Shown here: in pieces, positions 30,643-35,560 of the stretch
Layout of the letters: each line of letters begins with the position of its first letter
Position numbering within the stretch: position 1 is the stretch's first letter
Source: a virus
Virus record (IMG/VR): IMGVR_UViG_3300046171_000138
Length of the DNA stretch: 64,000 nt
Strand: one strand, 5' to 3'
The notes under the pieces: generated by a model
What the model was told of the DNA's origin: nothing
Database searches by the model: none
What the model saw: only the letters and a program-made list of their open reading frames with translations
Position numbers and translations under genes: made by a program

Positions 30643-30887
30643 CATTCCCTGCACCAAAATATCTTAAAGACGATCCTTGGTTCGGACCTGCAACATTAAG
30701 CGAGACCCAAGAGATTTTAAAAGCAAGAATTGATCTTTGTGTTGCAGAACAACTCTTGTTGGTAGAAGAAGAGACTGGTATTCCAACTAACATCCACGAA
30801 GTCATGTATCAAATTGCCACTAAAACTGGTAAGACTACTACACAACTGGATCCACAAACTTGGATGTCTGGTTCTGGTATCAACTAA
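30639..30887 (+). CDS. hypothetical protein
   Basis: 82-aa ORF, ATGA overlap. Confidence 0.65.
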   Translation: MTFPAPKYLKDDPWFGPATLSETQEILKARIDLCVAEQLLLVEEETGIPTNIHEVMYQIATKTGKTTTQLDPQTWMSGSGIN

Positions 30888-30892
30888 TTTGC

Positions 30893-30921
30893 TTGACAGC
30901 ACCTAGTCACTGTGCTAATAT
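30893..30921 (+). promoter_or_regulatory. sigma70-type promoter for the tmRNA/tRNA cluster
   Basis: TTGACA-17-TAATAT with extended TG. Confidence 0.75.
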
Positions 30922-30928
30922 ATACAGT

Positions 30929-31180
30929 GTTCAAGAGGTTGCAAAGTCTGTTGTTCTGGACAGGGGTTCGATTCCCCTCACTTCCATTGATGGGGGTGCC
31001 ATGGTTTCGACAGGGCAAAAAGGTTGTAATTGTTGACGGGACAAAACCCTAGATGCAAACACATCTGATTCCGCTGCGAATAATATCGTAGCATTCTCCC
31101 GCAGCACCGTTGCTGCCTGAATGGGAGATGGGGGATAGGTTATCCTTCTAATCCAATAACTCTTGGGGGTGTGATGCCCC
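30929..31180 (+). ncRNA. ssrA: two-piece (circularly permuted) tmRNA
   Basis: T-arm AGGGG-TTCGATT-CCCCT (30962-30978) and acceptor 3' strand CACTTCC-A precede the 5' strand GGGGGTG (30992-30998), giving G3:U70; tag ORF ANNIVAFSRSTVAA-TGA at 31076-31120; cross-piece helix CAGGGCAA/TTGTTCTG; ends approximate. Confidence 0.9.
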
Positions 31181-31188
31181 TTCTTTAT

Positions 31189-31265
31189 GGGCAAGTAGCT
31201 CAGCTGGATAGAGCCACGCACTTCTAATGCGTTGGTCGGGGGTTCGAGTCCCTCCTTGCCTGCCA
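31189..31265 (+). tRNA. trnR: tRNA-Arg(TCT), CCA encoded
   Basis: GGGCAAG/CTTGCCT acceptor, ACGCA-CTTCTAA-TGCGT anticodon arm, GGTTCGAGTCC. Confidence 0.93.
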
Positions 31266-31337
31266 GGGCGATTAGCGCAGCGGTAGCGCACCTCCTTTAC
31301 ACGGAGAGGGTCGGGGGTTCGATTCCCTCATCGCCCA
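31266..31337 (+). tRNA. trnV: tRNA-Val(TAC), CCA not encoded
   Basis: GGGCGAT/ATCGCCC acceptor, anticodon loop TTTACAC, GGTTCGATTCC. Confidence 0.9.
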
Positions 31338-31699: not shown

Positions 31700-32356
31700 A
31701 TGAAAATTTTTCTAGACACAGCAGACTTCGGTGCTATCATCGAACGTTCTCGCACTGGCATCATTTCTGGCATAACAACAAACCCAACACTAGTACGTAA
31801 GCAAGGTGTAGACTACCGAGATCTTATTGCACAGTTGTGTGATGAGTCTTTTGCATTTGAATCTGTATCAGCAGAAGTCAATGGACAGACAGCAGAAGAA
31901 CTACTAGAAGATGCAGAGAACTACATTGGTCTAGGTGAAGCAGTTACTATCAAGTTGCCTCTCCACATGGAGGGTCTGATTGCATGTAGAGATCTAGCTT
32001 CTCGTGGTATCAAGACTAACGTGACCCTGTGTTTCTCTGCTGCTCAAGCAGCTGTAACTGCTTTGTCTGGTGCCACATATATCTCCCCATTCGTGGGACG
32101 GTTGAATGATAATAGTGTCAGTGGTGTTGAGTTGATCCGTGCTATCTCTGGTCTGTACTGCTCACAGGGACAGCGTACCAAGATCCTTGCTGCCAGTTTG
32201 AGAGATGTCCACCATGTCTCCCGTTGTCTTCTGTATGGTGCTAGTGTAGTCACTCTTCCAGTTGGGGTATTTGATAAGATGTATAAGCACGTCCTTACTG
32301 ATGTAGGACTGGATATCTTTGAACAAGATTTTAGGGAAATCAATGAAAGAAATTGA
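31700..32356 (+). CDS. talC: transaldolase
   Basis: MKIFLDTA, GITTNPTL, TIKLP, TNVTLCFS, YISPFVGR, ILAASLR. Confidence 0.95.
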   Translation: MKIFLDTADFGAIIERSRTGIISGITTNPTLVRKQGVDYRDLIAQLCDESFAFESVSAEVNGQTAEELLEDAENYIGLGEAVTIKLPLHMEGLIACRDLASRGIKTNVTLCFSAAQAAVTALSGATYISPFVGRLNDNSVSGVELIRAISGLYCSQGQRTKILAASLRDVHHVSRCLLYGASVVTLPVGVFDKMYKHVLTDVGLDIFEQDFREINERN

Positions 32357-32567
32357 AGAAATGCGTGAGATTAGTGAGGAGGAGTTCCAAGCGAACTTCG
32401 ATGCTTACATGGATCTCATTGAGAGTAAAGGTGAGCACTTCCTAGTCCGTCGCTCGGACGGTAGTGCAGTCATCGCAGCACCGATCACAGAAGAGATGGA
32501 ACCGTTGCTTGACATTATGCCTACATTGGACTATAATGACGGAGTTGCTGGAGACCCTTCCTTCTGA
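32343..32567 (+). CDS. Phd/YefM-antitoxin-like small protein
   Basis: ISEEEFQANFDAYMDLIESKGEHFLVRRSDGSAVIAAP resembles the Phd N-terminal fold pattern. Confidence 0.5.
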   Translation: MKEIEEMREISEEEFQANFDAYMDLIESKGEHFLVRRSDGSAVIAAPITEEMEPLLDIMPTLDYNDGVAGDPSF

Positions 32568-33104: not shown

Positions 33105-33245
33105 ACTCTAAACTTATCCTGGTGGAGCTGGGTAGACTTATCTGCTGGTCCAGTCTCGGTAAGACTATAAACTAGCCCTGGTGCGGGTGTTGCTGCCGCC
33201 TGGTTTCCAATTTCCAGTTAAAGAATTGGTGGCGAGCCTGTGCAT
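33103..33245 (+). ncRNA. manA-like structured RNA motif
   Basis: GC-rich intergenic block ending CCGCCTGGTTTCC...CCAGTTAAAGAATTGGTGGCGAGCCTG, matching my recollection of the cyanophage manA motif; not verified by CM search. Confidence 0.55.
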
Positions 33246-35406: not shown

Positions 35407-35454
35407 CATCGTTAAGTTAAGAAACCAAAACATTTCTTAACGGTTCGTAACACC

Positions 35455-35560
35455 CCTAAAACCGAGACCTATAGGGTGTATAAACAACGTCTCTAATACC
35501 TCTGCCTAGGGCGCAGAGGAAATAGTAACTCCACCATTCCCTGATGGTCTTACTTTCTTT
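35455..35560 (+). ncRNA. PhotoRC-II-like cis-regulatory RNA in the psbA leader
   Basis: CCGAGAC...GTCTCT, CCTCTGC/GCAGAGG hairpin, ACCAT-TCCCTG-ATGGT; directly 5' of psbA. Confidence 0.7.

Follow-up and report, generated by a model that had tools for sequence, protein, structure and literature searches.

Organization of the tmRNA locus

The window, i.e. the whole stretch of 64,000 nucleotides analysed here, contains at positions 30927-31181 (+) a circularly permuted tmRNA gene of cyanobacterial type, which is followed by two tRNA genes (Table 1). The original prediction, made from the letters alone, had placed a phage-encoded, permuted two-piece tmRNA at this site, and two independent detectors, Rfam and ARAGORN, agree with it. 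A cmscan search matched the model cyano_tmRNA (RF01851) over its full length (1-288) at 30912-31180 (+), scoring 122.4 bits (E 1.1e-32; gathering score 70), and the model tmRNA_permuted (RF04321) at 30937-31120 (+) with 88.8 bits (gathering score 47). ARAGORN, proposed as a check together with the Infernal search for cyano_tmRNA, likewise calls a permuted tmRNA (tmRNA*) with the tag ANTSDSAANNIVAFSRSTVAA.

The permuted order is evident from the arrangement of the acceptor strands: the T-arm and the 3' acceptor strand (30962-30986) come first, and the 5' acceptor strand (30992-30998) follows after the intervening segment TTGAT. The 5' leader hairpin of the Rfam model is missing from the window gene in the cmscan alignment, and the Rfam scan returned no riboswitch within the gene at the gathering threshold. 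The terminal hairpin and the TTCTTT behind it look like a terminator. A protein-coding reading of the locus, as in the annotated gene gp053 of phage S-CAM3 or in the window ORFs at 30860-31036 (+) and 30931-31221 (-), was dropped in favour of an RNA gene.

Table 1. Features at and downstream of the tmRNA gene (window coordinates).
Feature	Position	Strand	Basis
Sigma-70-type promoter, -35 TTGACA, 17-nt spacer, extended -10 TG-n-TAATAT	30893..30921	+	10/12 matches
Acceptor piece, first in gene	30927..30986	+	Rfam alignment; sequence
P2, 5' strand (acceptor piece)	30937-30958	+	Rfam alignment
T-arm	30962-30978	+	Read from sequence
3' acceptor strand CACTTCC	30979-30985	+	Read from sequence
Discriminator A (A73)	30986	+	Read from sequence
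Intervening segment TTGAT, predicted to be removed when the precursor is cut in two	30987..30991	+	Sequence
Coding piece with D-loop-like CCATGGTTTCGA, tag frame, 3' hairpins and terminal hairpin	30992..31181	+	Rfam alignment; folds
5' acceptor strand GGGGGTG	30992-30998	+	Read from sequence
P2, 3' strand (coding piece)	31011-31031	+	Rfam alignment
Hairpin 1, UAGAUG / CAUCUG, loop CAAACA, around upstream Ala codon	31050..31067	+	Fold
Tag reading frame ANTSDSAANNIVAFSRSTVAA with TGA (31118-31120)	31055..31120	+	ARAGORN
Hairpin 2, GCUGCGA / UCGUAGC, loop AUAAUA	31073..31092	+	Fold
Hairpin enclosing tag end and stop codon	31093..31122	+	Fold; Rfam model
G+C-rich terminal hairpin, then TTCTTT; last helix of Rfam model	31165..31181	+	Rfam; sequence
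tRNA-Arg (TCT)	31189..31265	+	ARAGORN, Rfam
tRNA-Val (TAC)	31266..31337	+	ARAGORN, Rfam
Transaldolase (PF00923)	31700-32356	+	E 1.4e-46
Small ORF, weak Phd/YefM antitoxin match	32319-32567	+	E 0.008, below cut-off
wcaG RNA motif	33149-33243	+	62.8 bits
PhotoRC-II RNA motif	35438-35533	+	78.4 bits
ORF of 359 aa	35569-36648		Size and position of psbA (D1)

Promoter and neighbouring genes

The strong sigma-70 promoter that had been claimed for the gene was found: TTGACA and TAATAT are 17 nt apart, a TG precedes the -10 element, and 10 of the 12 positions match, with transcription predicted to start at about 30927-30929. The alignment shows the promoter to be kept in S-CAM1, S-CAM3 and AG-345-P14. 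The tRNA-Arg gene begins 8 nt past the terminal hairpin of the tmRNA and is directly abutted by the tRNA-Val gene; as there is no space for a separate promoter, both tRNAs are most simply regarded as products of read-through from the tmRNA transcript.

Further downstream, a transaldolase gene precedes a small ORF that weakly matches Phd/YefM antitoxins, and the same neighbourhood of S-CAM1 carries an annotated 'Phd-like antitoxin'. The wcaG RNA motif of the window has a counterpart at the corresponding site of S-CAM1 (L001 5130-5226, 83.5 bits), situated just before a tRNA-Gly gene. A PhotoRC-II motif lies directly upstream of an ORF with the size and position of psbA, which is the usual cyanophage arrangement.

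Source phage and related loci

Over 24 kb around the tmRNA gene, the window is 83.7% identical to S-CAM1 (Kyanoviridae) across 68% of the length, and 80% identical to S-CAM3. Judged by this similarity, it derives from a T4-like cyanomyovirus, a marine Synechococcus phage related to S-CAM1 (~84% identical). The block formed by the tmRNA, tRNA-Arg and tRNA-Val genes is 90.6% identical to that of S-CAM1 and 90.0% to that of S-CAM3, and ~75% identical blocks are found in Sf-FS3, in S-SSM7/S-SSM6a and in the single-cell virus AG-345-P14. All five relative loci (S-CAM1, S-CAM3, Sf-FS3, S-SSM7, AG-345-P14) are matched by RF01851 with 109-143 bits and called as permuted tmRNA by ARAGORN, and in all five records the tmRNA is unannotated. 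In some of them, genes for a 'hypothetical protein' overlap the tmRNA (gp053 of S-CAM3, L002 1523-1663; SSSM7_025 of S-SSM7, L004 1486-1704; and L003 1731-1940), and these are probably annotation artefacts. A second, unpermuted 'tmRNA' called by ARAGORN in Sf-FS3 (L003 1113-1530) spans three tRNA genes, has an implausible tag and is a false positive. Only ~15 of ~440 cyanophage records match over the tmRNA part; the gene is rare in cultured cyanophages and hence dispensable for this phage type.

Further copies were gathered from IMG/VR and from host genomes with a pattern spanning the T-arm, the spacer and the D-loop-like region, which yielded at least 81 phage copies (at least 75 of them from IMG/VR) and at least 99 host copies of loci with a cyanobacterial-type tag. 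An earlier pattern, GGACAGNNGTTCGANTCNNCTC, had been too loose and returned mostly ordinary tRNA genes of unrelated bacteria. Other IMG/VR contigs, among them L016, L017, L045, L056, L245 and L250, possess permuted tmRNAs with spacers of 21-29 nt and non-cyanobacterial tags (GAYNAPLALAA, DNSYMSYANYSYALAA, ANDERFALAA); these contigs probably belong to phages of proteobacterial hosts.

Acceptor stem and helix P2

The two acceptor strands GGGGGUG and CACUUCC, the latter followed by the discriminator A, form seven pairs (G1-C72, G2-C71, G3.U70, G4.U69, G5-C68, U6-A67, G7-C66), so that the alanine acceptor stem with G3:U70 is present as predicted. Equally in line with the prediction, the sequence contains no CCA after the discriminator at 30986; among the matches listed, CCA is not encoded in 77 of the 81 phage and in all 99 host copies. 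G3.U70 is invariant among the matches listed (43/43 unique phage and 39/39 unique host sequences). The neighbouring G4.U69 is not the host state and occurs in 9 of the 43 unique phage sequences among the matches listed.

In these 43 unique phage sequences, again among the matches listed, every pair of the acceptor and T stems is formed, and several pairs exhibit compensatory changes: acceptor pair 5 is found as G-C, A-U, C-G or U-A, acceptor pair 6 as U-A or C-G, T pair 3 as G-C or C-G, and T pair 4 as G-C or A-U. Helix P2, in which UUGUUCUG pairs with CAGGGCAA and which has additional distal extensions in the Rfam alignment, joins the two pieces. Its six pairs adjoining the T-arm are formed in 40-43 of the 43 unique phage sequences among the matches listed, in U-A, C-G and A-U types. 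The distal pairs 3-7 and 10-11 score poorly when counted at fixed offsets; because of indels between clades in this part, the low counts are taken as an alignment artefact and not as evidence against the helix. Concerning the two pairings proposed between the pieces, CAGGGCAA/TTGTTCTG is present in the Rfam model as helix P2 and shows covariation among phages. The other, CAAGAGGTT/AACTCTTG, could not be supported: it lies outside the Rfam model, its sequence is near-invariant within the S-CAM1 clade, S-CAM3 has one pair fewer, and the other clades do not possess it. Taken as a whole, the pattern of substitutions indicates that the window tmRNA is kept by selection as an RNA structure in phages.

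Length of the intervening spacer

The 5-nt segment TTGAT is present as described, but it is not unusual, as had been supposed. Phage spacers measure 4-9 nt with a median of 5 nt, and exactly 5 nt are found in 46 of the 81 phage copies among the matches listed. Spacers of Prochlorococcus-type hosts comprise 5-9 nt (6 nt in 43/53 among the matches listed), and those of other picocyanobacteria 5-28 nt, with a median of 12 nt among the matches listed. A spacer of 5 nt is thus typical for phage tmRNAs of the cyanobacterial type.

Tag reading frame and resume codon

The tag frame contains three in-frame Ala codons, GCA at 31055 (ARAGORN), GCT at 31073 and GCG at 31076 (Rfam alignment, original prediction), and ends with a TGA stop codon at 31118, such that the encoded tag terminates in VAA. 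Starting from GCG 31076 the tag reads ANNIVAFSRSTVAA, whereas from GCA 31055 it reads ANTSDSAANNIVAFSRSTVAA and is extended upstream by seven codons (21 nt). The predicted frame and stop codon were confirmed, as was the cyanobacterial type of the tag, with its shared core ANNIV.FSR and its VAA end; the predicted start at GCG 31076 probably has to be given up for GCA 31055, which has an A at position -4.

In E. coli, A86, situated four bases before the resume codon, is the main determinant of the frame and almost universally conserved (PMC2481249). An A at -4 is found in 18/18 unique host and 9/9 insert-free phage sequences among the matches listed. In the phage sequences that bear an insert of 21 nt, it precedes GCA in 33/33, GCT in 9/33 and GCG in 1/33 among the matches listed. 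The upstream Ala codon furthermore varies at its third base only (GCA/GCT/GCC). Because of the invariant A at -4, this third-base-only variation and a frame that is open in every copy among the matches listed, the upstream start is favoured, and translation probably resumes at GCA 31055. Two observations count against it: the seven additional N-terminal residues are poorly conserved, and hairpin 1 pairs the -4 A of the upstream codon; tmRNA activity in E. coli was lost when a comparable helix was stabilised (PMC2481249). Hairpin 1 itself shows a compensatory change, from AGAUG/CAUCU to AUCUG/CAGAU in the AG-345-P14 group. If resumption occurred upstream, tagged peptides should contain ...AANTSDSAANNIV; with a downstream start, only ...A(A)ANNIV would be expected.

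Hairpin 1 is part of the in-frame insert of 21 nt, which exists in 64 of the 81 phage copies among the matches listed and is absent from host tmRNAs. The insert resembles a duplicate of the tag start (AGAU|GCA AAC A, compared with AGAU|GCA AAC AAA in insert-free phage copies). A reading of the insert as purely a structure upstream of the tag was considered, but the requirement for an A at -4 and the restriction of changes in codon 1 to its third position make it less likely. Conceivably, though we put this somewhat below even odds, the duplication caused resumption in a large clade of cyanophage tmRNAs, the window copy among them, to take place seven codons earlier than in any host, and thereby created a longer, phage-only tag (ANTSDSA followed by ANNIVAFSRSTVAA). 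Host proteases or adaptors might then treat the tagged proteins differently. No description of such a longer tag arising from a 21-nt duplication was found in the literature searched.

Several properties of the frame point to coding as well as structural constraint. It is open in all 81 phage copies among the matches listed, and the segment ANNIVAFSR, common to phage tags, varies at third codon positions only. The tag region folds far more stably than shuffled sequence (z = -4.46). All seven pairs of hairpin 2 are formed in 33/33 unique sequences among the matches listed, and synonymous swaps occur in paired fashion, namely GCU...GUA versus GCA...GUU (U-A to A-U; 24 versus 9 sequences) and also G-C to A-U. 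Hairpin 2 corresponds to a hairpin of the hosts that likewise covaries and lies where their tag begins. In picocyanobacterial host tmRNAs, the resume codon begins this hairpin of 6 bp, the third pair of which covaries (GCG...CGU in Synechococcus, GCU...AGU in Prochlorococcus), and by this covariation the third base of the resume codon is linked to the Arg/Ser difference at residue 6 of host tags.

Host tags are near-invariant (ANKIVSFSRQTAPVAA and ANNIVRFSRQ(A/T)APVAA), and 99/99 end in AA among the matches listed. Phage tags not ending in AA amount to 55 of the 81 copies among the matches listed; the window copy keeps the host-like end, and its terminal STVAA is shared with 18 other phage copies among the matches listed.

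Relationship of phage and host tmRNAs

In a maximum-likelihood tree of 148 unique sequences among the matches listed, calculated after removal of the spacer, 55 of the 57 phage rows are separated from all 91 host rows by a branch with 100/100 support and a length of 0.52, again among the matches listed. The window groups with S-CAM1, S-CAM3 and 10 IMG/VR rows. Sequence characters differ in the same manner: the 5' acceptor strand is GGGGCUG or GGGGUUG in hosts and mostly GGGGGUG or GGGGAUG in phages, and T pair 3 is C-G in hosts and mostly G-C in phages. By these comparisons, the phage tmRNAs constitute a lineage long separate from the host tmRNAs and are not recent captures from hosts. The tmRNAs of two IMG/VR contigs (L264, L291) are placed within the host group on a long branch and carry host-like tags (ANNIVSFSRQAAPVAA); they could stem from a later, independent capture or from host sequence binned as viral.

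Proposed function and alternative explanations

Concerning the partner protein, the original prediction that the window lacks smpB holds: tblastn with Synechococcus SmpB gave nothing better than E = 2. A search with the Pfam SmpB model likewise returned nothing at E <= 1 in the complete genomes of S-CAM1, S-CAM3, Sf-FS3 and S-SSM7, whereas a host Synechococcus genome encodes SmpB (177.6 bits). Hence the phage tmRNA must rely on the SmpB of the host, and must likewise depend on host AlaRS, RNase P, 3' trimming and CCA addition.

We consider the gene, with a probability of roughly 0.85, to encode a working tmRNA (ssrA) in two pieces, to be carried by a lytic T4-like cyanophage and to belong to a phage lineage of long separate standing; its anatomy, its conservation, the covariation and the lack of a phage SmpB were computed, and processing, charging, tagging and a benefit to the phage are inferred. 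The gene would be transcribed early by host RNA polymerase from the sigma-70-type promoter, probably as one precursor with tRNA-Arg and tRNA-Val. Cleavage by host RNase P would produce the 5' end at G1 (30992), and the 3' end after A73 (30986) would be made by a host endonuclease or by exonucleases, such that the 5-nt spacer is discarded and CCA can be added by the host CCA-adding enzyme. The resulting acceptor piece of 60 nt and coding piece of ~190 nt would be held together by the acceptor stem and helix P2, charged with alanine by host AlaRS via G3:U70, and delivered to stalled ribosomes by host SmpB and EF-Tu. With GCA 31055 as the most likely resume codon, translation would continue in the tag frame and add (A)ANTSDSAANNIVAFSRSTVAA, so that tagged peptides would end in ...NNIVAFSRSTVAA, and the host-like VAA end should direct them to host Clp-type proteases. 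The likely benefit is that ribosome rescue and amino-acid recycling persist while host mRNAs are degraded and host RNA synthesis falls. Against a working tmRNA stand the missing 5' leader hairpin, the wobble G4.U69 beside G3.U70, the pairing of the -4 A in hairpin 1 and the rarity of the gene among cultured cyanophages.

The dependence on host SmpB also agrees with a different role, in which the RNA is a decoy that soaks up SmpB or competes with the host tmRNA and so stops host trans-translation, with a tag that is not meant for translation: a phage RNA without its own SmpB must compete for that of the host, and a TLD-only form with an inhibitory effect has been described for DS6A (PMC4131195). 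Yet the window gene is not of this TLD-only type, as it retains the whole mRNA-like domain with a conserved tag frame, and a decoy would need neither a frame that is open in 81/81 copies among the matches listed, nor the third-position-only variation of ANNIVAFSR, nor the invariant A at -4. Coding selection on the tag frame makes a role as a pure SmpB decoy improbable. Still less credible is a mere passenger, i.e. a recently captured host gene or a remnant of an attachment site with no role in infection. Such remnants are known, as integration often takes place at tmRNA genes and prophages contain pieces of them (PMC9004378), but the gene found here is complete, it lies among the tRNA genes of a lytic T4-like genome, and at ~90% identity across S-CAM1, S-CAM3 and the window it is better conserved than the flanking DNA (~80-84%); moreover, the well-supported branch (100/100) that separates it from all host sequences and the compensatory changes in its pairings disagree with recent capture.

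More weight, although we still regard it as doubtful, can be given to the explanation that a changed tag is the main point of the phage gene, with the N-terminal extension or the non-AA ends altering the fate of tagged proteins, which may be spared, redirected or degraded at another rate. Across the family, the insert in 64/81 phage copies and the non-AA ends in 55/81 phage versus 0/99 host copies, all among the matches listed, are in favour of it. The window tag, however, keeps the host-like VAA end, and its extension, which may not be translated, consists of poorly conserved residues. The purposes suggested in the original prediction, protection against defences that cleave host tRNA or tmRNA and a retuned decay of tagged proteins, are speculative, and the VAA end counts against retuning by the window copy. 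A retuned tag is accordingly plausible for the family and weak for the window copy, for which ribosome rescue by a functional tmRNA remains the preferred reading.

Comparison with known systems

Phage tmRNAs were reported by Hudson et al. (2014; PMC4131195) in mycobacteriophages and Bacillus phage G only. A survey of 18,146 phage genomes by Buchholz et al. (2022; PMC9004378) yielded 53 two-piece tmRNAs, of which 50 were aquatic, and the authors proposed roles in rescue and amino-acid recycling. The tmRNA database of 2025 lists 79 bacteriophage sequences (PMC11915505). As S-CAM1, S-CAM3, S-SSM7 and S-CRM01 are marked 'Permuted' in Table S1 of PMC9004378, the permuted tmRNA of the nearest relatives was already known before the window. 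Our literature search found no paper analysing the tags or the expression of cyanophage tmRNAs.

The gain from the window itself is small: one more member of the S-CAM1 clade, a corrected claim on the spacer, and support for the upstream resume codon. For annotation, the gene has been missed in GenBank/RefSeq for S-CAM1, S-CAM3, S-SSM7 and Sf-FS3, and spurious 'hypothetical proteins' extend across the locus. In a wider sense, tmRNAs borne by phages suggest that ribosome rescue becomes limiting when streamlined, slow-growing marine hosts are infected, and the cyanophage tmRNAs, as an old lineage of their own with altered tags, offer a natural experiment on the purpose of the tag.

The window gene is most similar to those of S-CAM1 and S-CAM3, with which it shares the tag, the spacer length of 5 nt, the promoter and the neighbouring genes. 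Differences include the spacer sequence (TTGAT in the window, CTCAT and TTCTT in S-CAM1 and S-CAM3) and position 69, where the window and S-CAM3 have U instead of C.

With the two-piece tmRNA of picocyanobacteria (RF01851), the window gene has in common the gene order, the G3:U70 stem, the lack of an encoded CCA, a short spacer, helix P2, the D-loop-like AUGGUUUCGAC, the core ANNIV.FSR, the VAA end, and the hairpins at the tag start and at the terminus. Despite this general similarity, there are clear differences: the acceptor strand is GGGGGUG instead of GGGGCUG/GGGGUUG and T pair 3 is G-C instead of C-G, the 5' leader hairpin is missing, the tag start bears an in-frame insert of 21 nt, a shorter hairpin of another form lies between P2 and the tag, and the tag ends in STVAA, whereas the hosts possess Q(A/T)APVAA.

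Among other phages, Melnitz (OM43 host) and HTVC008M (SAR11 host) are marine T4-like myoviruses which likewise encode a permuted tmRNA behind an early promoter; as for the window, no phage SmpB is reported, and the same hypotheses on the purpose have been put forward (PMC9004378). Their tmRNAs are, however, of the alphaproteobacterial type, and the gene of Melnitz holds a glutamine riboswitch. The one-piece tmRNAs of mycobacteriophages (Bxz1 group) are also phage-encoded but have the standard, unpermuted order (PMC4131195), and the TLD-only RNA of DS6A lacks a tag frame (PMC4131195), whereas the window gene combines the permuted order with a complete mRNA-like domain in which the tag frame is conserved.
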